A stretch of 10,447 nucleotides of DNA from Halalkalibacterium halodurans. Lineage in GTDB: Bacteria; Bacillota; Bacilli; Bacillales; Bacillaceae_D. How positions within the stretch are numbered: the stretch's first letter is position 1; every line of letters begins with the position of its first letter. The position numbers were made by a program, and so were the translations under genes. Under the pieces are notes generated by a model. It saw nothing but the letters and a program-made list of their open reading frames with translations, did no database searches and was not told the origin of the DNA. The stretch is from the NCBI RefSeq assembly GCF_004376175.1, contig NZ_SNUY01000078.1, positions 1 through 10,447 on the forward strand, read 5' to 3'. Shown piece after piece: positions 1-10,447 of the stretch.

Positions 1-104
1 CGCCCTTGATTGACCTCTGAATAAACCATTGGTGTGTTTGTCAAGAGCGATAGCGTGGCATTTCCACCTAATAAATGGTAGGTAGTATGAACCGTGCTAG
101 TTTT

Positions 105-428
105 TCATAGAACTTTTGACACTACCTCATCATTCATGATATTTTCGACCATATGAACATCTATCGCAGAATATTTAATACGGTTTTTTTGAATGGCATA
201 AAACAAAGTGTGATACATCTTACGTTTTGGATTACTTCGAGATGGCATTAATAAGAAAATGCTAACTCCCATACCAAAAACATAATAGGGAATGGTTAAC
301 GAAGAGTGAACCATTCCCTTAGATAGATAAAGAAAAAAAGCAGTTAGTAATAGAATGACAATCTCTTTAAGATGAAATGACTTGGTTATCTTTATCTCAC
401 TTTTAAAGTGTTTCGGAATTTCATACAA
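105..428 (-). CDS. Small two-TM T4SS membrane protein, PrgI/ConD/TcpE-type (VirB3-like), 107 aa
   Basis: Track ORF. The start is TTG (426-428), with a GGGAGGAAGG SD about 8 nt upstream. It lies 1 nt after the TAG stop (430-432) of the upstream gene, so the two are translationally coupled. An N-terminal IPKHFKSEIKITKSFHLKEIV segment is followed by two adjacent hydrophobic helices and a basic tail (RSNPKRKMYHTLFYAIQKNRIKY), which is the PrgI-family/VirB3-like layout. It sits directly after a VirB6-like gene. The family call is from recalled pattern only. Confidence 0.75.
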   Translation of the reverse strand: MYEIPKHFKSEIKITKSFHLKEIVILLLTAFFLYLSKGMVHSSLTIPYYVFGMGVSIFLLMPSRSNPKRKMYHTLFYAIQKNRIKYSAIDVHMVENIMNDEVVSKVL

Positions 429-429
429 G

Positions 430-2640
430 CTACCTTCCTCCCTTTCTCCAATCTCTTATTGTTCTTCCGATTCGATACCCTGTATTGTAACCTTTTACAT
501 GCTCTTCCTTGGCTTTCATAACTACTCTATTTTGCCCCCAAATAGTATTTGGGTGTTGGGCTGTTTTAAACCCTGTTTCCTTTGTAGTATCGTATGTGGT
601 TTCTTGATATTTTTCATTAGGTGCAGTACTTTCTCCACTCGGAACTGGCGCTGTACCTTGTACGCTTTCACTTGAAATTGGTGCAGTACTTTCTCCACTC
701 GGAACTGGCGCTGTATCTTGTACGCTTTCACTTGAAATTGGTGCAGTACTTTCTCCACTCGGAACTGGCGCTGTACCTTGTACGCTTTCACTTGAAATTG
801 GTGCAGTACTTTCTCCACTCGGAACTGGCGCTGTATCTTGTACGCTTTCACTTGAAATTGGTGCAGTACTTTCTCCACTCGGAACTGGCGCTGTACCTTG
901 TACGCTTTCACTTGAAATTGGTGCAGTACTTTCTCCACTCGGAACTGGCGCTGTACCTTGTACGCTTTCACTTGAAATTGGTGCAGTACTTTCTCCACTC
1001 GGAACTGGCGCTGTATCTTGTACGCTTTCACTTGAAATTGGTGCAGTACTTTCTCCACTCGGAACTGGCGCTGTATCTTGTACACTTTCGCTTGAAATTG
1101 GTGCAGTACTTTCTCCACTCGGAACTGGCGCTGTACCCTGACCAGCCTGTGCATTCAGATTCTGACCTTTCATGCCTTGATCAGCTTGTGCATTTGGATT
1201 CTGACCTTTCATGCCTTGATCAGCCTGTGCATTTGGATTCTGACCTTTCATGCCTTGACCAGCCTGTGCATTTGGATTCTGACCTTTCATGCCTTGACCA
1301 GCCTGTGCATTTGGATTCTGACCTTTCATGCCTTGACCAGCCTGTGCATTTGGATTCTGACCACTTGGGATTTTGTTATTCGCTTGATTACGTCTCGATT
1401 GAGATAAAGCGCCATTGTCTTTTTTTGCCCCATTAGTAGCTTGTATACCTGCCTTTAATCCCCCTGCTAAACCTACACCTTGATTGAATTTAGAGAAGCT
1501 TTCACTTACGAGTTTGCCCCCTACCTTTGATGTCACGTTTGATACAGCTTTACTAGCCATCACTAATCCTACACCTGTCCGCCAACTATCTTTTAATCCT
1601 GCGTCTACTCCTAGTATTCTTTCGACTAAGTGTGGACCATCAATAAGAGCAAGGCTAGCCGCTAATAATAGTAACGAGCTTCCAAACGACCCCAAAGACG
1701 ATTGACCACTTAGCCAGTTTGAAAAAAGCACATAGAATTTAAGAGACACTGCAAGAAAAAAGATAACCGCAAAATTGGAAATTATATCATTAATAATTTG
1801 TTTGATTCGCTGTCCTCCTGATAAATCTGTGACAGCTATAAATAAGCCAAACAGCTTTTTAAATGCTAACTCAAATATAATTCGTCCAACTTTTAAAACA
1901 GCTATAATTAACGTAATTCCAATCACAGATAAGCTAAAAATCGTATTCCACCAAGCTACATGCCAACGGTAGTAAAGTTCTTTACCAATACCAAACCATC
2001 CGTTGCCAAGTGGCTCTTCTCTAAAATTACCATTTGTGTCCATAACCAATTTGCTTTTTAAGTAATCATTATTTATATCATCACTGTCGGGATCTATCAA
2101 TTCATTAATATCTATATACGTTATTCGACTAACCGGAAGATCATTTACAAGTCCTTTTTCCGGTATTCTCACATTAAAATCCTTTTTTGCATAAAGGTAT
2201 ACATCAGCAATATTACCTTTAATAAGTTGTTCAGCATTTGTGCCAGCGCTAGTATCACCTATGGCTTTGACCCCTGCTGTTGTTATATTGTCTAAATTAG
2301 ACAATAGCAGGGGCAATGCAATAATAAACAAGAAAGCCAATAAAACATTAGTCACAACTCTTTCCCGATCTTGCATTTTCCCTGCCATAAACTTATATCC
2401 TATCCACACCAGTGATATTGCAACAAGTACCCATAATACCGGCGACCATTGTTTTATAAAGTTATTTACAGGTGCTGAGTTGAAAAATCCATTCATAGTC
2501 AATACTGTATCCGTCATACCTTCTACTTGGTTGACTAGCCACATAAGCCCTAAAATGAGCCACCAGCCTAACTCTCGAAGGGATGAACTAAGTATATTAG
2601 CAATGTTCAAAATCGAATCATATTGTTCTAAAACGTCCAA
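430..2640 (-). CDS. VirB6-like polytopic T4SS channel protein (ConG/TcpH/PrgH class) with a long repetitive C-terminal tail, 736 aa
   Basis: Track ORF. TTG start at 2638-2640, with a GGGGGAGA SD about 5 nt upstream, 11 nt after the stop of the upstream gene. Residues 1-340 contain about 7 hydrophobic helices, with a ~115-aa hydrophilic loop after the third helix (VirB6-type topology). The segment LIDGPHLVERILGVDAGLKDSWR after the last helix resembles Gram-positive VirB6 analogues. The C-terminal ~330 aa carry GQNPNAQAGQGMK x5.7 and TAPVPSGESTAPISSESVQ[G/D] x8.7 repeats, followed by a basic 60-aa end. Confidence 0.85.
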   Translation of the reverse strand: MDVLEQYDSILNIANILSSSLRELGWWLILGLMWLVNQVEGMTDTVLTMNGFFNSAPVNNFIKQWSPVLWVLVAISLVWIGYKFMAGKMQDRERVVTNVLLAFLFIIALPLLLSNLDNITTAGVKAIGDTSAGTNAEQLIKGNIADVYLYAKKDFNVRIPEKGLVNDLPVSRITYIDINELIDPDSDDINNDYLKSKLVMDTNGNFREEPLGNGWFGIGKELYYRWHVAWWNTIFSLSVIGITLIIAVLKVGRIIFELAFKKLFGLFIAVTDLSGGQRIKQIINDIISNFAVIFFLAVSLKFYVLFSNWLSGQSSLGSFGSSLLLLAASLALIDGPHLVERILGVDAGLKDSWRTGVGLVMASKAVSNVTSKVGGKLVSESFSKFNQGVGLAGGLKAGIQATNGAKKDNGALSQSRRNQANNKIPSGQNPNAQAGQGMKGQNPNAQAGQGMKGQNPNAQAGQGMKGQNPNAQADQGMKGQNPNAQADQGMKGQNLNAQAGQGTAPVPSGESTAPISSESVQDTAPVPSGESTAPISSESVQDTAPVPSGESTAPISSESVQGTAPVPSGESTAPISSESVQGTAPVPSGESTAPISSESVQDTAPVPSGESTAPISSESVQGTAPVPSGESTAPISSESVQDTAPVPSGESTAPISSESVQGTAPVPSGESTAPNEKYQETTYDTTKETGFKTAQHPNTIWGQNRVVMKAKEEHVKGYNTGYRIGRTIRDWRKGGR
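621..1140. repeat. 60-bp perfect-phase tandem repeat, about 8.7 copies, inside the VirB6-like CDS
   Basis: The unit gtgcagtactttctccactcggaactggcgctgta[c/t]cttgtacgctttcacttgaaattg starts at 621, 681, 741, 801, 861, 921, 981, 1041 and 1101 (the last is partial). One site toggles c/t (656+60n: c,t,c,t,c,c,t,t,c), giving Gly/Asp on the minus strand. The only other changes are two synonymous Ser-codon swaps at 1084 and 1090 and one synonymous Gln change at 1138. Confidence 0.97.
1141..1362. repeat. 39-bp tandem repeat, about 5.7 copies, inside the VirB6-like CDS
   Basis: The unit a[c/t]cagc[c/t]tgtgcatt[t/c][g/a]gattctgacctttcatgccttg starts at 1141, 1180, 1219, 1258, 1297 and 1336 (the last is partial, ending at 1362). 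It encodes GQNPNAQA[G/D]QGMK on the minus strand. The length is a multiple of 3, so copy-number change keeps the reading frame. Confidence 0.97.
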
Positions 2641-2651
2641 AAAATCTCCCC

Positions 2652-3389
2652 CTATAAGGTCACTGAAATATCATGCTTTGCTTTTTGCAAATACAAGAAA
2701 TTAAATAACAAAAATAAGTAAAAGACTGTAAAAATAACTAAAGTAATAGGGGAATTAAGAAAGTCAGCATATAGCTTACTAGCAAAGAGCGATAAAAGAA
2801 TAGGAACCGCAAATACAATACCTGTCATAAAATAAACTCTGTTCGCACTATATTTTTTCTCTCTCTGCAATTCATCCCTTTTAGTTGTCTCGAAGTTAAT
2901 TAATTTGCTAGTAGGACTGAAAAGATCTGTTACAGATCCCCCCATTTGATACTTAATCTCTAATATTTGATGGAAGGCATTTAGCGATACAAAATTATAT
3001 TTTTCAAAATGAGCTACATCGAGTACACCTTCTTGTTTGAGCGTTTTTATAGTCTTGTCTATATCCTTTTTCAATAAATCACTAGCCGATTCTTTAGCTC
3101 CTTCTAAGGCAAAAAGAACGTTTTTGCCTGTCTTTAAATAAAAAACAACATTTGAAACATACTTACTTAACTCACTAAAAATCCTCTGTTCTTTCTTTAA
3201 CTGCCTCCCCAACAATGAAATGCTATAGAAGCAAAGCAAAGACCCAACAAGCCCTAACAAAACGCTTAATACAACATGTTTGCTGATCATGTAGATGTAA
3301 AGAAAGTTGATACTAAAATAAAGGAGTAAATGGAGCAATACCACCCAACCAGAAAACAATTCTTTTGTTAAACCCCATACATCTTTCAT
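2652..3389 (-). CDS. Polytopic membrane protein with T2SSF (GspF/TadB/TadC)-like organisation, 245 aa
   Basis: Track ORF. ATG at 3387-3389, with an AGGAGG SD 8 nt upstream. Two N-terminal TM helices, a ~115-aa helical cytoplasmic segment, then two C-terminal TM helices. The central region follows the platform-protein pattern: SELSKYVSNVVFYLKTGKNVLFALEGA ... NAFHQILEIKYQMGGSVTDLFSPTSKLINFETTKRDELQREKKYSANRVYFMTGIVFAVPIL. The CDS is confident; the family assignment is moderate to low. Confidence 0.8.
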   Translation of the reverse strand: MKDVWGLTKELFSGWVVLLHLLLYFSINFLYIYMISKHVVLSVLLGLVGSLLCFYSISLLGRQLKKEQRIFSELSKYVSNVVFYLKTGKNVLFALEGAKESASDLLKKDIDKTIKTLKQEGVLDVAHFEKYNFVSLNAFHQILEIKYQMGGSVTDLFSPTSKLINFETTKRDELQREKKYSANRVYFMTGIVFAVPILLSLFASKLYADFLNSPITLVIFTVFYLFLLFNFLYLQKAKHDISVTL

Positions 3390-3415
3390 TTTTTTAACCT
3401 CCTGTTTTGATTAAT

Positions 3416-3450
3416 AAAAAAAGGCTTACAAGTCCAATCACTTGTAAGCC
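3416..3450 (-). terminator. Rho-independent terminator downstream of the primase gene
   Basis: On the minus strand: GGCTTACAAGT-gattgg-ACTTGTAAGCC (perfect 11-bp stem at 3423-3433/3440-3450, 6-nt loop) followed directly by TTTTTTT (3416-3422). The plus-strand reading has no T-tract, so it is unidirectional. Confidence 0.85.
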
Positions 3451-3470
3451 CCGAAAAAATCCCTAATAAC

Positions 3471-3499
3471 AATATAGCACGCTTTGAGTACCTTGTTAG
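3471..3499 (-). promoter_or_regulatory. Candidate sigma-A type promoter (extended -10) in the primase/245-aa intergenic region
   Basis: On the minus strand: CTAACA (3494-3499, 4/6 to TTGACA), a 17-nt spacer ending in TGC, then TATATT (3471-3476, 5/6 to TATAAT). That gives a TGnTATATT extended -10. It is only a sequence match, and the spacer also contains a 5-bp inverted repeat AGTAC...GTACT. Confidence 0.3.
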
Positions 3500-3526
3500 T
3501 ACTTAAATAGTTCATAAAAAGTTCGT

Positions 3527-5134
3527 TTAACCAACTTCCTTTTGAGATTCTTTTTCTTTGTTTTTAGTTTTTAATGGCTTTGTTAAATCTAAAATCTTGT
3601 TAGAAAAATCCTTAGAAGTCTTAACAAAGCTATTTATTTTATCACCCTTAAAATAGTACGGTGTTGATACATAATCTTTTCCTTTACTCTTACCTGTTAC
3701 AATTCCATTTACAATTAAATTACGATAACCAATATTAACAGATATATTACCGTTAGAGAAAGTATGTGAATGAATGATTTTAGGATCAAACTTCCCCCCC
3801 CCTGAACTAATATTAATCCCTACATTCTTAACTGTATTTTTTTCCTTAACCTGATGTTTAAGCTCATAGTAACTTTTAATCAACGCCCCTTCTATCATTC
3901 GTTTATCAAGGCTTTCTTCAAATCTATACACATCCCTCCATACACTATCAGTCCCCTTTTTTTGTGGATAATTAATCATAGGTGAACCTTTATATTCCTC
4001 TATTACAATATTATTGAGAGTTATCTCACCGTACTTCACACATGCAAGGGAAATTCCTTTATCTTGCAAAAAGGTCATATTAACAATCTTAACTTTATAA
4101 TCATTTGATTGCTCTGTTTTGTCATTCATTTTCTCACCCTCCTCTTTTTTCAAATCTATGTCTAAGGTTCTTAAAGTTAGCTCTATTTGTCGCTCAAAAA
4201 GTAAGCGGTTGCTTTGGAGTAAGTCATTAGGATCTTTTAGATCCATATCTGGATAAATAAATCCTTTATGAAACAACTTCTCTTCATCCAAAACGTGTGC
4301 TATTTTTTTATCTGCTTCTTTTCCTGCTCTATCATTGTCAAAAGCTCTAATAATCTTTTTCCCCTTAAACTTATCAGGGTTTTCTTTTATAAATGTTTCA
4401 AGCTGTTTTATTTTATTTGAACCTGTAGTCATTAATAAACCCATTTTCGGATCTATTTCTCGGAATGATAGTCCGTCTATAATACTTTCACTAATAACAA
4501 CAGTTTCAGCATTATCCGGTATATCTTCGACAAAATATCTTGCTTTCTCTGTTGGATTTAAAAATAACTGGATTTCTTTCTTCTTTAGACTAGGATCAGA
4601 CGACCTTAATAACAACGAGTCAATTGATCCTTCATGATTGTAAATAGGAAAAACAATATTCCTCTTTGTCATAAAGTCCATTTTCGCATAGTCTTTTTTG
4701 ATTAGGTCAGGGATTTTCGAGAACATAAGTGATACAATCTTAGGATCTTTTAGATCCAAAATGAAAGGTTTCGTAACTTCTCGATTTATCCCCCGATAAT
4801 TTTCTAATTCTTGATTTACAACATGTTTACTCATGAATTTAAAAAAATTAGTACACCAGTCGATTTGCTCTTTTTGTTTTAAAGAGATACTTTTAGGTTT
4901 TTCGTTTTTCTTTAAGTTCAGATTACCTTTTAGTTTTTCATTTAGTTTAATATGCCAACGTTCACCGCAATTATTTTGCCTATTGCACTGTAACACATTA
5001 AGATTATCTTTATACATAAATGCTTCTGGCTGATTACAAGATGGACAAGTACATAAAAAATAACGCCCCTGTGGTTGAGCGTTTAAAGATTCCAACATAT
5101 CATCAATATTCCTAAACTCTAATTGATTCACCAT
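3527..5134 (-). CDS. Plasmid/ICE-type DNA primase: N-terminal Cys-rich zinc ribbon + Toprim domain + C-terminal tandem SpoVG-like domains, 535 aa
   Basis: Track ORF. ATG at 5132-5134, with a GAGGT SD 7 nt upstream. Cys cluster C28-x-C30-x2-C33 ... C50-x5-C56. Toprim signature: acidic Glu in VVISESIIDGLSF (E216) and DxD in IIRAFDNDRAGKEAD (D266/D268). Residues ~346-425 and ~436-517 each resemble SpoVG (see findings). Confidence 0.85.
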   Translation of the reverse strand: MVNQLEFRNIDDMLESLNAQPQGRYFLCTCPSCNQPEAFMYKDNLNVLQCNRQNNCGERWHIKLNEKLKGNLNLKKNEKPKSISLKQKEQIDWCTNFFKFMSKHVVNQELENYRGINREVTKPFILDLKDPKIVSLMFSKIPDLIKKDYAKMDFMTKRNIVFPIYNHEGSIDSLLLRSSDPSLKKKEIQLFLNPTEKARYFVEDIPDNAETVVISESIIDGLSFREIDPKMGLLMTTGSNKIKQLETFIKENPDKFKGKKIIRAFDNDRAGKEADKKIAHVLDEEKLFHKGFIYPDMDLKDPNDLLQSNRLLFERQIELTLRTLDIDLKKEEGEKMNDKTEQSNDYKVKIVNMTFLQDKGISLACVKYGEITLNNIVIEEYKGSPMINYPQKKGTDSVWRDVYRFEESLDKRMIEGALIKSYYELKHQVKEKNTVKNVGINISSGGGKFDPKIIHSHTFSNGNISVNIGYRNLIVNGIVTGKSKGKDYVSTPYYFKGDKINSFVKTSKDFSNKILDLTKPLKTKNKEKESQKEVG

Positions 5135-5148
5135 ATTGTTTACCTCAA

Positions 5149-5682
5149 CTATACAGACTCACTTAAATAACTGTGATCATTTGTAACCTCTCTGTGAGTA
5201 GATAAAACAATTGCTGGATAACTTAATTTTTCAATCTCTTTATCATCAAAAGTAAGTCCTTGAGAGCTTACCAATATCTTCTGTTTTTCTTTGATCCTAT
5301 AATAATGATCCGTCTTATTAATTTGTTGCTCAATTGCCTTTTCTAAATTTCTAGCTATGAGATAAATGATAGCTCCGTCTCCAAAGATACTCTTATTATC
5401 AAAATATTTTTGTAACTCCAGAGATCCCACTACAATGAAGTCATTATTTAAACATTCAGATAGAGCAACAACTTCCTCCATTTCTTCTTCTAAACCTTTT
5501 AATAAAGCAAAATCATTAAATTTATTAGAGTAATATATACAAGGAGTACATTGAGGACTACTTGTAAACAGAAGAATGATCTCCTGCCAAAACTGTTCCG
5601 CCATAGCATAGCATTTTTCTGCAATCCTATTTACAATTTTTTCATTTAAATATTGATTCTCATGTAATAACAAATTACTCAT
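5149..5682 (-). CDS. Hypothetical acidic cytoplasmic protein, 177 aa
   Basis: Track ORF. ATG at 5680-5682, with an AGGAGAG SD 6 nt upstream. It is 11 nt after the upstream stop and 14 nt before the primase start. No TM segment, no signal peptide and no motif I recognise. Confidence 0.8.
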   Translation of the reverse strand: MSNLLLHENQYLNEKIVNRIAEKCYAMAEQFWQEIILLFTSSPQCTPCIYYSNKFNDFALLKGLEEEMEEVVALSECLNNDFIVVGSLELQKYFDNKSIFGDGAIIYLIARNLEKAIEQQINKTDHYYRIKEKQKILVSSQGLTFDDKEIEKLSYPAIVLSTHREVTNDHSYLSESV

Positions 5683-5693
5683 AATTAACTCTC

Positions 5694-6950
5694 CTAACTT
5701 TTATTTTTTTCAAAAACCACTTTAGTAACATGACTGATATACTCAGTAACCGCCCAATACTTAAAATCCATGCCTTTATTAATGCTCGACTCATATAACA
5801 CTTTTTTTACCTCTTCTTGATCCAACGTTGCAACATACTCCATAATCTCACGTTCAAAACGCCCAAAGAATCCACATTCTATTAATTCCTCAATTTTTAA
5901 AGTTTCTTTTTTGTTCTGCAACCTTCTAATTAGTTTGCCATCTTGACAGATGTTTTTTACTAAGATTTCTGCTACATTATCGAATCCATGTTTTGAAAAT
6001 AAATTTAAAAGATCGTCTTCTGTTTGTCCGTTTGATTGACTTTCATTTTCCTCATTAATGTTAAAGACAATAATCGCTTCTTCTGACTTCTGATCCTTTT
6101 GTTCATTCTGTAAGTATCCAGATAATACTGGCAGTATAATATTATTTTTTATATCGTCCTCAGAGGAAATAACTATCCCCTTTTTAATAATTGAATACCA
6201 CCTGTTCTTCAATAAAGTTTCTATTTCTTTATTCTTTTTTAGCGCCAATACGTAGTCCTCTAAAGCTAGTTGCTCGAATAAATATCTTTGAACCTCTTCA
6301 TAAACTTCCGAATCTCTTAGGCATTTATCAAGTCTAGATAAAGGTAAACTGTAGCGACTTGCTACAGCATAATTCTGAAACATTGAAAAGTTTTCAACGT
6401 CATTTAGACTTTCCTGTGTTAATTCCTGTGTTAAGACTAGATCATCAAAAGAATACTTAATTGCTTTTGCAATATCATTAACTTCACTATAAAAACTACC
6501 TACTATTCGATCTCTAAAAAGATCATAGAGTTGCTTCAATTTTTCTAAACTAAAAGAAAAATCTTGATTAGAAAATTGTTCTTCGACTTCAATAGCAAAC
6601 AATTTAAAATTTTGATCCAAAAACAATTTCTTTTCTTTTGATAGAAAATCAGTAAAATCATTGATCACTTTATTTTTCGTAGCTTCATTCCAATTTGACG
6701 CATTTTTTATTATCAGATAAATCGATTCTTCCAAACTTCTATTATCATTAAAATCAATAAAAGCCTTTAACACTCTTTTATTTTTAATAAACAAAGTAAA
6801 GGACAGTTCAACATTATCCCTTCCATTTTTTCTAAATTCACCTTTAAGTTTTTTTAAGATTCCTTCTAATTCGCTAATAAAATATCGTCGCTTTGGATCT
6901 AAATCTCTAATGCTGTTATTAGCTTCAACAACTACATGTACTTCCCTCAT
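5694..6950 (-). CDS. Hypothetical acidic helical cytoplasmic protein, 418 aa from the preferred start
   Basis: The track ORF extends to a TTG at 6980, but that codon lies inside the upstream terminator T-tract. The ATG at 6948-6950 has an AAAGGGG SD 7 nt upstream and is preferred. There is no Walker A, metal-binding or nuclease motif that I can recognise, and no TM segments. Confidence 0.8.
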   Translation of the reverse strand: MREVHVVVEANNSIRDLDPKRRYFISELEGILKKLKGEFRKNGRDNVELSFTLFIKNKRVLKAFIDFNDNRSLEESIYLIIKNASNWNEATKNKVINDFTDFLSKEKKLFLDQNFKLFAIEVEEQFSNQDFSFSLEKLKQLYDLFRDRIVGSFYSEVNDIAKAIKYSFDDLVLTQELTQESLNDVENFSMFQNYAVASRYSLPLSRLDKCLRDSEVYEEVQRYLFEQLALEDYVLALKKNKEIETLLKNRWYSIIKKGIVISSEDDIKNNIILPVLSGYLQNEQKDQKSEEAIIVFNINEENESQSNGQTEDDLLNLFSKHGFDNVAEILVKNICQDGKLIRRLQNKKETLKIEELIECGFFGRFEREIMEYVATLDQEEVKKVLYESSINKGMDFKYWAVTEYISHVTKVVFEKNKS

Positions 6951-6978
6951 GTCAAAACCCCTTTTTAACAGTAAATAC

Positions 6979-7010
6979 AAAAAAAGATGGTGAGTTAATA
7001 ACTCACCATC
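6979..7010 (-). terminator. Rho-independent terminator downstream of the 75-aa gene
   Basis: On the minus strand: GATGGTGAGTT-att-AACTCACCATC (11-bp perfect inverted repeat at 6986-6996/7000-7010) followed by TTTTTTT (6979-6985). It starts 8 nt after the TAG stop at 7019-7021. Confidence 0.85.
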
Positions 7011-7018
7011 CTACATTT

Positions 7019-7246
7019 CTAGAAGGCAACTACCCCTCTTAAACTGTCTCGTAACGCTCCTGCTCCCAGCACAATCACCAGTCCAACAAGAAGCCATGTA
7101 ATATTTCGCTTGCCCTTTTCCCTACCTTCTTGTCCTCCTGCAAAGAAGTTATACCCCGCCATACATAACATTACTGCACAAAAAGCCCACGCAGGCATTT
7201 GAATAAGCCCTAAGAAGTTTATTAAAGTAGAAATTACACCCTGCAT
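7019..7246 (-). CDS. VirB2/TrbC-like small two-TM protein (pilin-type T4SS subunit), 75 aa
   Basis: Track ORF. ATG at 7244-7246, with a GGAGGA SD 8 nt upstream. Two hydrophobic helices are separated by a short charged loop (GGQEGREKGKRN). The pattern LINFLGL...AFCAVMLCMAGYNFFAGG...LLVGLVIVLGAGALRDSLRG parallels mature Agrobacterium VirB2 (FILGPFGQSLAVLGIVAIGISWMFGR...GGIVIMFGASFLGKTLTG). This is recalled similarity, not a search result. Confidence 0.7.
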   Translation of the reverse strand: MQGVISTLINFLGLIQMPAWAFCAVMLCMAGYNFFAGGQEGREKGKRNITWLLVGLVIVLGAGALRDSLRGVVAF

Positions 7247-7273
7247 TTTTATAATCCTCCAATCTCATTTAAA

Positions 7274-7462
7274 TTAATCTGATACTGCTTCTAAAACAAA
7301 AGATAGATTTTCTGTGATTACTTTTTCATGTTGTGAATGTAGCCATTCATTGTAATCCACTCCTTTCAGAGCAAGAATTTTTTCAGCTTGCTCCTTCTTT
7401 GTTTTAAAATTACTTGGCTTCTTTCTTGGTCTATTTTGCTGTTCATTTTTCAGTTGTTCCAT
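7274..7462 (-). CDS. Small basic soluble protein of unknown function, 62 aa from the preferred start
   Basis: The track ORF (83 aa) starts at 7525, inside the upstream gene. The ATG at 7460-7462 has an AAAGGAG SD 8 nt upstream, and this SD overlaps the TAA stop (7476-7478) of the upstream gene. Sequence: MEQLKNEQQNRPRKKPSNFKTKKEQAEKILALKGVDYNEWLHSQHEKVITENLSFVLEAVSD. Confidence 0.65.
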   Translation of the reverse strand: MEQLKNEQQNRPRKKPSNFKTKKEQAEKILALKGVDYNEWLHSQHEKVITENLSFVLEAVSD

Positions 7463-7475
7463 ATTCTCATCTCCT

Positions 7476-10010
7476 TTATTCCAACGAAATAATATTAGAC
7501 AACCTTTCGTATAGGTCACCATCACTTGTTCTAAAAGAATGTAATAGCTGAGGTTGATCCTGCACCAATTCGAGTATTAGATTCTTTTGTGAATCCTTAA
7601 TCTCGACAGCATGTGTATAACTAACATTTAACGTAGATTCAGGTTGTTCATTGACGTATACGTCATCATAAACAGATCCTAATAGATACTTCTGAAAAGC
7701 AAATTCTTTACCAAAGTCAAGCGTTAGATCATTAAGTGTGAGCTTACCCAAAACATAATGATTCTTATACTGTCTCTCTCTATTCAGAAATGACTTTGGA
7801 TCAACAGGTAAATAGTACCTTTGACCATCAAAAGTTGTTATGTTTTCATTACTAAATTTTGACTTAGTAATTGATTCATACTCTAACTTTGCCTGTTTCT
7901 TTATATCTTCCTTACTTGACTTTCTAGGGACTGAGAACTGAAACCCTGTTTTATCTAAAATAAAAAAATCATCTTTAGCACCAAAATACGCCTTATACTG
8001 GTTTGCTTCACCCTCTTGTATTTCTATTAACTCAAGGGGAATTGCATACTCTGTATAGGCGTAAGCAGTTTTATTTTGATATTTTTTCTGTATAGATTCA
8101 TCCAAATCTACAGGGTAAAGGAACATAAAATCCTCGTCAATGTTATAAGGGAATGGCTCTCCAAAGTCTGATTTGTACTCTATTGGCTTATCAAATATCG
8201 GAAGCCAACTTTGCGTGAGTAAAGTAATCATTCTTTGATCATTAAGCTTTAGTGACTCATAATAACTTTCTTTTTCCCCTTTCGAACCTACCTCTACCGT
8301 TTGCCCTATTAAGAATCTGTGATCAGTACCAAATTCTAAATTATAGGTTTCATTATATGGATAATCTAAGTTAAACGTTTCTTCCCACTGGAAGCTTTTT
8401 TTATACTCTTTATCCCACACAGGTGTACTATCTTTGTAGATCCACTCAAAACAATGCTGTCCTTGTTGATCAGTACAAGTATAATTACGCCTAAAATGGT
8501 TCGTATACTCATAAGAAAAAGAAAACAGAACATCCCTTTTTTTTACATCCAATGGTTGTAACTTCGTTGAAAATGGTTCATCCTCTACGTTGTTAAATAC
8601 ATTTGCTGAATAGATACGATTTTCTACATTTTGTACATCAAAGTGCAACCCTGCAACCGTAGCAGAATTAACCAATAAGGTTTCACTAGGGTTATTTTCT
8701 TTAATTTTTTGTAAGCGCCATGATACTTCACCTTGAGCTTTCCCTTCTGTTGCACCATCTAATTCTTCTATACTGGAAGGGTTCGGCAAAGATACTTTGT
8801 AGGTAAATGTAAAATTCATATTGTTATTTGGTGTAGTCCCTTCATATTTTTGTCCTTCTGGCGAAGCGACAAAAGGGTTTCCGTTGGAATCCTTAAAAAA
8901 TCCAGCCTTCTCAGGTGCATACGAGTAAGAGTTTCCAACAGTAGATTTTACCTTCGTTTGCATTAATATCTTGCCTGTCGCGTAATCCTTATGAGTAATT
9001 GTTACATCAACTGTACATCTTTGATTGATGTTTACTATTGACCCATCTGGACAAACCTTTTTGGTTACTTGGTACGATAGAGTAGCAATAGTACCACCAA
9101 AAGCCCAATAGCTACTAGCTGCCCATCGAGTTCGTCCTGAATCATGAGGGCTACTGACACCATACCAAACAACAGTACTCTTTTGATCTTGGTTCACACG
9201 TTGATAAAAGCGATTGTAGTCAAAATAGTTGCCACTGTTTGTAGTCCCTCTTGGTTCGATTCGCCTGATAACACCATTTCCAATCATACGTAACTGTTGA
9301 GCGTTAATCCCACTAGAAAGGCTAATTTCACCATTACCCCAAGATAGATTTTCAAACTCAAAAGGTAAACGCAATTCGTCATAAAGAACAGTTGAACCTA
9401 CTCTTTTGACAATACGTAACTGCCAATCAGAGTTATTTTCCCCATCCTTAAAAAGCTCATCTAATGGAACATGCGCTCTAAACCCTACATGTTCATAATA
9501 CATGTTGCAAGTTGCATTATTTTGGTTTCTAGCACTATTCGCACAAGGGTTCCAAATATCCCCCGTTTGAGACTGACGGTTGAACTCCATATCTTTTGAA
9601 GCGTTAAAATTAAGTTGTTCCGCTTTATAAAACTTGTCTTCCCCAGTCCTAATATTTTTAAGCCAAATGTATGTGTCTTGGTTATTTTCTGTGTGGTGTC
9701 TATGTCCAATAACTGCTGACCATCCTGTGAAAGTTAAATATTGCCTACTACCTTTTCCAAAGTCCCTACGTTTAATGCTCCAGCCTTCTTTTCCGTCTCT
9801 TTGCATATAAACATCATATACCATCTTTTTTCCACTTTCGAAAGTAGCAGATCGATCTCCTTTTGTCCTCTTGTTTACATCGCTCATTTTAACGTCGTAA
9901 GGACTGTAACTATTCGCTAATCCATTTTCAGGGAAAGCCAACCAAAGAGCAAACCAAAGAGCAAATAATGAAAACACAACAGTTATATAGGAAATTGCTT
10001 TCTTCATCAT
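7476..10010 (-). CDS. Large secreted surface/adhesin-like protein with a MucBP-like beta domain, 844 aa from the preferred start
   Basis: The track ORF begins at a TTG at 10049, inside the upstream terminator. The ATG-ATG at 10005-10010 follows an AAAGGGGGTGAGGGA SD. It has a classical Sec signal peptide (MMKK + AISYITVVFSLFALWFALWLAF + PENGLA/NS). Residues ~346-419 in track numbering (VDVTITHKDYATGKILMQTKVKSTVGNSYSYAPEKAGFFKDSNGNPFVASPEGQKYEGTTPNNNMNFTFTYKV) fit the MucBP pattern. There are three short-range Cys pairs (169/181, 333/345, 525/533). There is no C-terminal LPXTG or TM anchor. Confidence 0.85.
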   Translation of the reverse strand: MMKKAISYITVVFSLFALWFALWLAFPENGLANSYSPYDVKMSDVNKRTKGDRSATFESGKKMVYDVYMQRDGKEGWSIKRRDFGKGSRQYLTFTGWSAVIGHRHHTENNQDTYIWLKNIRTGEDKFYKAEQLNFNASKDMEFNRQSQTGDIWNPCANSARNQNNATCNMYYEHVGFRAHVPLDELFKDGENNSDWQLRIVKRVGSTVLYDELRLPFEFENLSWGNGEISLSSGINAQQLRMIGNGVIRRIEPRGTTNSGNYFDYNRFYQRVNQDQKSTVVWYGVSSPHDSGRTRWAASSYWAFGGTIATLSYQVTKKVCPDGSIVNINQRCTVDVTITHKDYATGKILMQTKVKSTVGNSYSYAPEKAGFFKDSNGNPFVASPEGQKYEGTTPNNNMNFTFTYKVSLPNPSSIEELDGATEGKAQGEVSWRLQKIKENNPSETLLVNSATVAGLHFDVQNVENRIYSANVFNNVEDEPFSTKLQPLDVKKRDVLFSFSYEYTNHFRRNYTCTDQQGQHCFEWIYKDSTPVWDKEYKKSFQWEETFNLDYPYNETYNLEFGTDHRFLIGQTVEVGSKGEKESYYESLKLNDQRMITLLTQSWLPIFDKPIEYKSDFGEPFPYNIDEDFMFLYPVDLDESIQKKYQNKTAYAYTEYAIPLELIEIQEGEANQYKAYFGAKDDFFILDKTGFQFSVPRKSSKEDIKKQAKLEYESITKSKFSNENITTFDGQRYYLPVDPKSFLNRERQYKNHYVLGKLTLNDLTLDFGKEFAFQKYLLGSVYDDVYVNEQPESTLNVSYTHAVEIKDSQKNLILELVQDQPQLLHSFRTSDGDLYERLSNIISLE

Positions 10011-10037
10011 TAGAAGTCCCTCACCCCCTTTTCGAAT

Positions 10038-10070
10038 AAAAAAACACAAAACCTAGTAGCTTCGTGTTTT
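10038..10070 (-). terminator. Intrinsic terminator of small-peptide cassette 1
   Basis: Minus-strand RNA: AAAACACGAAGC-uacuag-GGUUUUGUGUUUU followed by further U (7 U in a row, 10038-10044). The core stem is 8 bp with two G.U pairs, flanked by A/U pairs. It overlaps the TAA stop at 10069-10071. Confidence 0.7.
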
Positions 10071-10224
10071 AGAATACATTGCGAATCGTATCTGTAATAC
10101 CTTTAAAAACAGTATCTACTGTTTGACTAAACCATCCATTATCACCACCAAGTGCTACCCCTAGCACTCCAAAGAGCATTACAGCAAGAACAATTAAAAA
10201 CAAAGATCCATTTTTTTCACCCAT
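10069..10224 (-). CDS. 51-aa single-TM membrane peptide, cassette copy 1 (not in the ORF track)
   Basis: Hand translation of the minus strand gives ATG (10222-10224) ... TAA (10069-10071): MGEKNGSLFLIVLAVMLFGVLGVALGGDNGWFSQTVDTVFKGITDTIRNVF. The SD AAAGGGGGTGA (10/11 match to AAAGGAGGTGA) ends 5 nt before the ATG. An identical peptide is encoded 209 bp upstream, with only a synonymous difference. Confidence 0.8.
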   Translation of the reverse strand: MGEKNGSLFLIVLAVMLFGVLGVALGGDNGWFSQTVDTVFKGITDTIRNVF

Positions 10225-10246
10225 CAGTTTCACCCCCTTTTCGAAT

Positions 10247-10279
10247 AAAAAAACACGAAACCTAATAGCTTCGTGTTTT
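10247..10279 (-). terminator. Intrinsic terminator of small-peptide cassette 2
   Basis: Same hairpin as at 10038-10070, but the stem G.U pair is a G-C pair here (10257 g versus 10048 a on the plus strand) and the loop differs by one base. It is followed by U7. Confidence 0.7.
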
Positions 10280-10433
10280 AGAATACATTGCGAATCGTAT
10301 CTGTGATACCTTTAAAAACAGTATCTACTGTTTGACTAAACCATCCATTATCACCACCAAGTGCTACCCCTAGCACTCCAAAGAGCATTACAGCAAGAAC
10401 AATTAAAAACAAAGATCCATTTTTTTCACCCAT
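10278..10433 (-). CDS. 51-aa single-TM membrane peptide, cassette copy 2 (not in the ORF track)
   Basis: ATG at 10431-10433 and TAA at 10278-10280. The protein is identical to copy 1, with a single synonymous ATT/ATC difference at Ile43. It has the same consensus-like SD. Confidence 0.8.
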   Translation of the reverse strand: MGEKNGSLFLIVLAVMLFGVLGVALGGDNGWFSQTVDTVFKGITDTIRNVF

Positions 10434-10447
10434 CAGCTTCACCCCCT

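Follow-up and report, generated by a model that had tools for sequence, protein, structure and literature searches.

A probable pBS72-type mating-pair-formation operon of Halalkalibacterium halodurans without the VirD4 and T2SSE ATPase block of its relatives

A stretch of 10,447 nucleotides from Halalkalibacterium halodurans (positions 1 to 10,447 of contig NZ_SNUY01000078.1, assembly GCF_004376175.1), referred to here as the window, carries a presumptive conjugation operon that resembles those of the plasmids pBS72 and pLS20. All substantial open reading frames (ORFs) are on the minus strand, where 11 genes follow one another in the order given by the original prediction, which was made from the sequence letters and had described a single co-directional, terminator-punctuated operon; the negative GC skew across the entire window is consistent with this orientation. 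Four intergenic terminator-like hairpins with U-tracts were found, with folding free energies (ΔG) of -12.9 to -19.3 kcal/mol and z scores of -3.1 to -6.2 against shuffled sequences, so both elements of that description hold. On the minus strand they follow the first copy of a 51-aa peptide gene (10250-10279; 13-bp stem and U-tract, ΔG -15, z -4.1), its second copy (10041-10070; ΔG -12.9, z -3.1), the gene for a 75-aa pilin-like protein (6984-7012; 13-bp stem, ΔG -17.6, z -5.0) and the primase gene, the last within a 137-bp junction (3390-3526) with a strong hairpin at 3421-3452. The GC content is about 33% for the element and about 0.30-0.39 across the window outside one repeat tail; that of the H. 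halodurans genome is about 44%, and the lower value fits a foreign plasmid or an integrative and conjugative element (ICE). Rfam and tRNA scans of the window were empty, and a megablast search of the whole window against PLSDB gave zero matches, the DNA identity to its relatives being too low.

The gene at 430-2640 (minus strand, as for all genes below) encodes a 736-aa extended VirB6-like protein of the pLS20_p028 family. It matches the NCBIfam model pLS20_p028 (NF045890) with an E value of 6.8e-114 and 380 bits against a cut-off of 150, and blastp aligns it with pLS20 gene 49 at E 6e-55. The protein consists of a polytopic N-terminal domain (about residues 1-366 by the NCBIfam match, or 1-395 by blastp to orthologues), a repeat tail rich in S, A, G, P and Q, and a small basic C-terminal motif. 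The tail varies from 271 to 851 aa among orthologues, as expected from the long, length-variable tail that had been predicted for a VirB6-like protein. In the window it is encoded by tandem repeats (620-1362) of 60 nt in 8.6 copies (98%) and 39 nt in 5.7 copies (96%), with a GC content of 45-46% compared to 30-39% in the rest of the window, and the repeat sequences suggest a recent expansion. The coding repeats give rise to long but spurious ORFs on either strand (522-1154, 621-1436 and 1177-1407), and the plus-strand ORFs within 522-1436 were rejected as antisense or frame artefacts. A scan of genome contigs with the VirB6 N-terminal domain found no relative, and a metagenome scan returned only the contig of the closest relative (L006) again and two distant loci.

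Directly 3' of the VirB6-like gene, an adjacency also present in five annotated plasmids, lies the gene for a 107-aa protein with two transmembrane (TM) segments in the position of VirB3/PrgI (105-428). The protein belongs to Pfam DUF5592 (PF17332; E 1.9e-20, 73.5 bits) and weakly matches the VirB3-like N terminus of a Mycoplasma ICE VirB4 (E 0.0046); the only support for the term VirB3-like is this weak match, together with position and topology. In the remaining 3' flank (1-104), the DUF5592 stop codon is followed by a good Shine-Dalgarno (SD) sequence and then by just a 6-codon ORF (MPRYRS, then a stop codon), and these 104 nt show no start for the ~200-aa gene that relatives have ahead of VirB4. 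The VirB4 that was presumed to come next was therefore not borne out, since the last 104 nt hold no assignable start and the relatives place the ~200-aa gene before VirB4. The missing gene start may reflect a second rearrangement or simply a divergent N terminus.

A 75-aa protein (7019-7246) with two TM helices was assigned to the VirB2-type pilin-like proteins of type IV secretion systems (T4SSs). It scores 34.3 bits with Pfam T4SS_pilin (PF18895), above the gathering cut-off of 26.6, whereas the TrbC match (PF04956) is 21.7 bits, under its cut-off of 27.9, and the match to the NCBIfam Mbov_0395 pilin-like conjugal transfer protein (E 7.6e-6) is under the model cut-off. The TM segments span residues 8-26 and 47-65, with the basic loop GGQEGREKGKRN between them. 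The P. larvae orthologue clears both Pfam models, T4SS_pilin and TrbC/VirB2, and orthologues are named 'pilin' or 'TrbC/VirB2 family protein' in RefSeq. The homologous pLS20 gene 45 (76 aa; 14035-14265) reaches 32.1 bits with T4SS_pilin, above the cut-off, which is passed by a protein of the window, of its 16 relatives and of pLS20. These profile searches uphold the VirB2-like subunit of the original prediction. A tblastn search with the 75-aa protein gave no match, the query probably being too short or filtered, and a PDB profile search with the pilin family gave nothing meaningful. Upstream of the pilin gene lies a small soluble protein (7274-7462) listed as an 83-aa ORF, which overlaps the end of the adjacent 844-aa gene (window 7462-7525). 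An SD sequence (AAAGGAG) with an ATG at 7462 directly follows the 844-aa stop codon, suggesting that the product is probably 62 aa rather than 83 aa long; this 62-aa product aligns with pLS20 gene 44 (63 aa; pLS20 13806-13997) at a blastp E value of 1.6e-8.

The 245-aa protein encoded at 2652-3389 has TM segments at both ends that flank a cytoplasmic helical bundle, and it is 100% identical to the H. halodurans protein with the locus tag E2L07_18200. Its B. badius orthologue, 42% identical and annotated as 'type II secretion system F family protein', scores 25.7 bits with Pfam T2SSF against a gathering score of 25.2. Five further orthologues match at E 0.0076-0.1, and all six align to nearly the whole profile in the same register. 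When a profile of the 245-aa family was searched against 1.84 billion representative proteins, 133 hits were obtained, and 47 of the 77 remote ones taken (E 1e-7 to 1e-3) are bona fide Pfam T2SSF proteins. The top PDB hits of the structure model in Foldseek are the cytoplasmic domains of EpsF, PilC and OutF, with a probability of 0.93-1.0 and a TM-score on the target of 0.64-0.71, although the E values are weak (0.3-2). A PDB profile search with the family gave nothing meaningful. From sequence and model we conclude that the protein belongs to the T2SSF superfamily as a divergent member with a single domain, of TadB/TadC type, so the T2SSF-like platform protein of the original prediction appears correctly named as to family. 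An equivalence to the gene that PGAP calls 'FlaJ' in relatives was considered and rejected, as blastp pairs the 245-aa protein instead with the other T2SSF-like gene, directly 5' of VirB6.

At 7476-10010 lies the gene for an 844-aa multi-domain protein with a signal-like hydrophobic segment at residues 8-26. It shows neither a C-terminal TM segment nor a Pfam domain for wall binding, and no LPXTG motif was seen in the translation. The AlphaFold2 model (pLDDT 84) is multi-domain and almost entirely beta, and in Foldseek it gave loose matches only, to multi-domain adhesins and Ig-like proteins. Comparison with 32 homologues indicates a conserved N-terminal domain of ~300 residues (~35-330), a MucBP-like domain at ~341-411, and a helical motif at the C terminus that is likewise conserved. 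The MucBP match of the protein itself is full-length but weak (E 0.27), that of homologues ranges from E 6.5e-4 to 7e-12, and several homologues are named 'MucBP domain-containing protein' by NCBI. The earlier wording 'adhesin-like, anchorless' is a fair description of a putative role.

To place these genes, 16 relatives were compared (12 plasmids and four metagenomic contig groups). The same gene order was found in pBS72 (KX711616), the P. larvae plasmid CP019656, B. cereus-group plasmids, B. thuringiensis p133753, B. badius pPM400 and metagenomic contigs, with a protein identity of 31-43% for the named plasmids. It runs from a small peptide through a large secreted protein, a small protein, the VirB2-like pilin and unknowns to a Toprim primase, and then, after a further block of genes, to the T2SSF-like, p028 VirB6-like and DUF5592 proteins. 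Past DUF5592 come, in the relatives, the ~200-aa gene and then VirB4, a cell-wall hydrolase and a relaxase (MobP2/MobL). Twelve Bacillaceae/Paenibacillus plasmids, as well as metagenomic contigs, carry this pBS72-type module. A homologue of the 844-aa protein is present in all 12 PLSDB plasmids that carry a 245-aa homologue, compared to 1020 plasmids with a p028 homologue, indicating that the gene set travels together as a sub-lineage, as the genome comparison proposed with the original prediction had asked. The term 'undescribed' used there does not stand, because the module is of the pBS72 type and related to the studied pLS20 operon, and RefSeq already labels its pilin, TrbC/VirB2 and T2SS F family proteins. 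MOB-suite typed the plasmids of the relatives as mobilizable or non-mobilizable only. The regulators upstream of the module vary; the closest relative has an ImmA/ImmR-like pair (L006, 4037-4971; Peptidase_M78 and HTH), and ArpU-family regulators occur at the operon head of two plasmids (L012, 27637-28071; L013, 28276-28719).

The window differs from these relatives at the junction between the primase and the 245-aa gene. In 13 of the 16 relatives a block of ~5 kb lies here, consisting of two small genes, VirD4, a second T2SSF paralogue and a T2SSE-family (TadA/VirB11) ATPase; the remaining three have another arrangement in which the ATPase trio is still present, and VirD4 was annotated or detected with Pfam in 14 of the 16, that is in all 14 tested. 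At this site the window has 137 bp with one strong hairpin, and tblastn of the window found no VirD4, second T2SSF paralogue or T2SSE ATPase anywhere in it and no remnants of the block genes. A comparable hairpin is situated directly 3' of the ATPase gene in relatives. The block-less junction was seen in three datasets, the window, ERR1034890 (a contig 99.77% identical to the window over 8.8 kb) and SRR25997715, which also spans the junction. Because independent read sets contain the same junction, the absence of the block is real within this stretch. This absence had been overlooked in the original prediction. It leaves the T2SSF-like gene an orphan here, with no adjacent T2SSE-family ATPase gene in the window, whereas in relatives and pLS20 the ATPase gene is adjacent or within two genes, and it makes self-transmissibility uncertain. 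The small proteins with an N-terminal TM segment that are found beside the ATPase/T2SSF trio in C. horneckiae (L010, 3406-3744) and pLS20 (gene 40; L014, 12609-12971) match DUF4320 weakly, at E 7e-4 and E 6e-3, respectively; they might be pseudopilin-like accessory subunits, and the window has no counterpart.

One explanation of the junction is that the element is a defective or dependent remnant, in which a deletion of ~5 kb removed the coupling protein and the ATPase and left a decaying or helper-reliant module that is not self-transmissible. The presence of the block in 13 relatives and of the ATPase trio in the other three, the 137 bp free of remnants, the recurrence of the same junction in three datasets and the 104 nt after DUF5592 without a start for the usual next gene are all consistent with such a loss. 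On the other hand, all ORFs of the window are intact, including the long 844-, 736- and 535-aa genes, and at least three sequencing datasets contain near-identical copies. Some relatives, moreover, have a shuffled gene order, for example C. horneckiae, where VirD4 is found downstream, and the missing genes could thus lie beyond the 10.4-kb window. A remnant thus has a real though minority chance of being the right explanation; what can be stated is that the block is lost or carried elsewhere in the element.

The composition of the block also bears on what the T2SSF-like protein might do. It may form, with the ATPase of the relatives, a motor for membrane-protein extraction or assembly that serves the T4SS and is functionally VirB11-like, rather than being a pilus part. 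For the ATPase of the relatives, the TadA-type and VirB11 models give similar scores (135 and 116 bits, each short of the cut-off), and its gene and those of the T2SSF-like proteins lie among the T4SS core genes, adjoining VirD4 and VirB6. To our knowledge, however, canonical VirB11 ATPases have no T2SSF partner, and type IV filament machines are the only other setting in which T2SSF-T2SSE pairs are known, so that this role appears rather unlikely.

T2SSF/T2SSE pairs normally act on type-IV-pilin-like subunits, and the 51-aa single-TM membrane peptide at the head of the operon was for this reason checked for likeness to Flp pilins. It is encoded twice, at 10278-10433 (copy 1) and 10069-10224 (copy 2), by genes with identical protein products. 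Both lie in a 209-bp tandem duplication (10021-10447; Tandem Repeats Finder score 826, 2.0 copies, 98% matches) whose unit consists of a ribosome-binding site (RBS), the peptide gene and a terminator hairpin; a third copy of the RBS is found 5' of the 844-aa gene, and the window edge falls at the RBS of the first peptide copy. Each gene thus has a strong SD sequence (AAGGGGGTGA) and its own hairpin. The 'multicopy' peptide of the original prediction is hence correct as to two identical genes, but only two copies lie within the window, and 'hyper-expressed', which was inferred solely from the SD sequence and the copy number, is unconfirmed. Homologues start with MGEK, in which Glu3 is invariant, and have a single TM segment and an amphipathic tail. 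They stand at the module head, mostly directly 5' of the large secreted-protein gene (in the closest relative, pBS72, the B. thuringiensis plasmid and C. horneckiae), whereas in B. badius the homologue precedes the orf83/pilin pair. In B. thuringiensis p133753 the small-peptide gene is tandemly duplicated too (L012, 25199-25577), and in the closest relative a strong hairpin (L006, 7589-7612) follows it, suggesting that the gene may repeatedly be subject to attenuation or present in high dosage. pLS20 gene 41 (47 aa) is built in the same way, but its resemblance falls short of significance. As a leaderless Flp-type pilin the peptide was rejected; its family has no Pfam Flp_Fap hit, and in hhalign comparisons with four annotated Flp pilins the probability was 1.9%, a value also obtained in a control that paired VirB2 with Flp. 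The idea is kept as a low-probability speculation based on architecture.

The original prediction had gone further and proposed that pilin, peptide, anchorless adhesin and T2SSF platform form a surface appendage or adhesion device linked to DNA transfer, which would amount to a Gram-positive conjugative pilus or an adhesion fibre. That the pilin and platform families are confirmed, that relatives pair the platform with a T2SSE-family ATPase in a trio resembling TadB-ATPase-TadC, that hairpins follow the peptide and pilin genes, as is often so for major-subunit genes, and that the adhesin has a conserved C-terminal motif and no anchor of its own would all fit such a structure. Yet the window has no ATPase. 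Furthermore, no prepilin peptidase was found among the annotated products of the related modules examined, the comparison of the peptide with Flp equals its control, and VirB2 homologues can be channel components without forming pili. A surface appendage of this kind is accordingly an unlikely reading of the operon.

The remaining three genes encode a primase and two soluble proteins. The 535-aa protein at 3527-5134 is a DnaG-type primase in which an N-terminal zinc finger and a Toprim domain are followed by an additional C-terminal domain. Toprim_2 matches residues 213-306 at E 2e-11, which confirms the Toprim domain of the transfer-associated primase that had been predicted, a PHROG DNA primase matches at 29-64 (2e-10) and a primase/helicase at 27-310, and the DnaG (TIGR01391) and MG010 matches are weak and below the cut-off. 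The C-terminal ~200 aa (3527-4140, about residues 330-535) extend beyond Toprim, and the homologue of one relative (L008) carries a faint SpoVG annotation on this extra region. The 428-aa (or 418-aa) protein at 5694-6980 is conserved in relatives and without a Pfam, NCBIfam or PHROG match, and PHROG searches were null for all unknown ORFs. The 177-aa protein at 5149-5682 is conserved in the closest relative, where tblastn finds a 178-aa protein (L006) at E 1e-15.

Among characterized systems, the pLS20 operon is the most informative. Its genes 49 (VirB6-like), 50 (DUF5592), 45 (T4SS_pilin), 44 and, weakly, 38 are homologous to window genes, and both operons combine an anchorless adhesin, a primase and internal terminators (PMC8092201, PMC8191782, PMC8557374); a terminator-punctuated operon is thus already known from pLS20. 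pLS20 genes 37-39 comprise a TadA-like ATPase gene (PGAP tadA) followed by two genes for T2SSF-like membrane proteins, one of them weakly T2SSF-like. The pLS20 operon differs in its gene order, in having the primase at the operon end and in the presence of the ATPase. Its adhesin is a thioester (TIE) protein whose likeness to the 844-aa protein is confined to one beta-domain (E 1e-5), and this anchorless adhesin is required for mating in liquid (PMC8092201). In the terminator-rich pLS20 operon, the conAn antitermination system carries transcription past the terminators (PMC8191782), and the pLS20 family was described in 2021 as having no VirB2 homologue (PMC8557374).

Other systems share single features with the window. 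The VirB2/TrbC pilins of Gram-negative bacteria and the VirB2-like arrays of Patescibacteria have the same small size, two hydrophobic helices and basic loop as the 75-aa protein, but the host of the window is monoderm, VirB5, VirB7, VirB9 and VirB10 are lacking, and any pilus is hypothetical. According to reviews, Gram-positive T4SSs are without VirB2, Patescibacteria excepted (PMC12857230, PMC12102498). The Tad/Flp type IVb machinery is alike in its T2SSF-superfamily protein with one cytoplasmic bundle flanked by TM helices, and the relatives likewise place two T2SSF proteins beside a T2SSE ATPase. It differs in that no prepilin peptidase or Flp-type pilin was recognised in the modules, the window is without the ATPase, and the genes are situated within a T4SS operon. 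The Prg/Pcf system of pCF10 (PrgF-PrgH-PrgI-PrgJ) has the same order of a small TM protein, a VirB6-like, a VirB3-like and a VirB4 protein. However, PrgF has no T4SS_pilin hit and a weak Maff2 match only, PrgH is a short VirB6 of the TrbL type, PrgI belongs to another Pfam family than DUF5592, and hhalign found no similarity between the window families and pCF10 PrgH or PrgI. The adhesins of pCF10 are LPXTG-anchored.

Taken together, the window probably represents the promoter-proximal to central part of a pBS72-type mating-pair-formation operon, distantly related to that of pLS20, from which the VirD4/T2SSF-paralogue/ATPase block has been lost or moved elsewhere in the element. The original idea of a T4SS core combined with pilin- and platform-type parts that travel together is retained in this reading, while the novelty is not, and the ATPase and VirD4 are missing here. 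By analogy with pLS20 and with the T4SSs of Gram-negative bacteria, the VirB6-like and DUF5592 proteins would form a membrane channel with a downstream VirB4, and the VirB2-like protein would be a high-copy membrane subunit that lines this channel or extends it through the thick wall. The large secreted protein would act as a mating adhesin like the anchorless TIE adhesin of pLS20, and the primase, made in the donor, would prime complementary-strand synthesis in the recipient. The internal terminators might be read through by a processive antitermination system, and may also set the stoichiometry in favour of high levels of peptide and pilin.

Several observations weigh against assignment to a pBS72-type mating-pair-formation operon. 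The window has no VirB4, VirD4, relaxase or hydrolase, so that its membership of a complete conjugation system rests on synteny, and pBS72 itself is called just 'putative conjugative' in the literature (PMC8708921). The VirB6-like and VirB3-like status of two proteins depends on NCBIfam and Pfam family names, position and topology. For the VirB6 N-terminal domain, hhalign against pCF10 PrgH was negative and PDB profile searches gave nothing meaningful; the 107-aa protein had no PrgI Pfam hit, and hhalign of DUF5592 with pCF10 PrgI gave a probability of 1%. The 245-aa protein of the window itself has no hit to Pfam T2SSF (PF00482) at E<=0.1, and its AlphaFold2 model is of moderate quality only (pLDDT 68).

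A broader and distinctly speculative extension is that pLS20- and pBS72-type systems build a filament or wall-spanning conduit from the VirB2-like pilin, and possibly the abundant ~50-aa peptide, driven by a co-opted Tad-like motor of one T2SSE ATPase and two T2SSF platform proteins and with the anchorless adhesin displayed; we consider it improbable at present. If true, classical Gram-positive bacteria would gain their first example of a conjugative pilus-type organelle, and the window would be a natural variant that has lost the motor. The value added by the window is modest: it is a divergent family member and a natural deletion variant with neither VirD4 nor the motor. The wider point is not specific to the window. 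Reviews up to December 2025 describe Gram-positive T4SSs as devoid of VirB2, VirB11-type ATPases and any pilus-like structure (PMC12857230, PMC11730352, PMC12102498, PMC8557374), whereas pLS20-type systems carry VirB2-like and Tad-like parts. Because pLS20 genes 37-39, 41 and 45 are genetically tractable, the role of pilin-type parts in conjugation of monoderm bacteria is directly testable.

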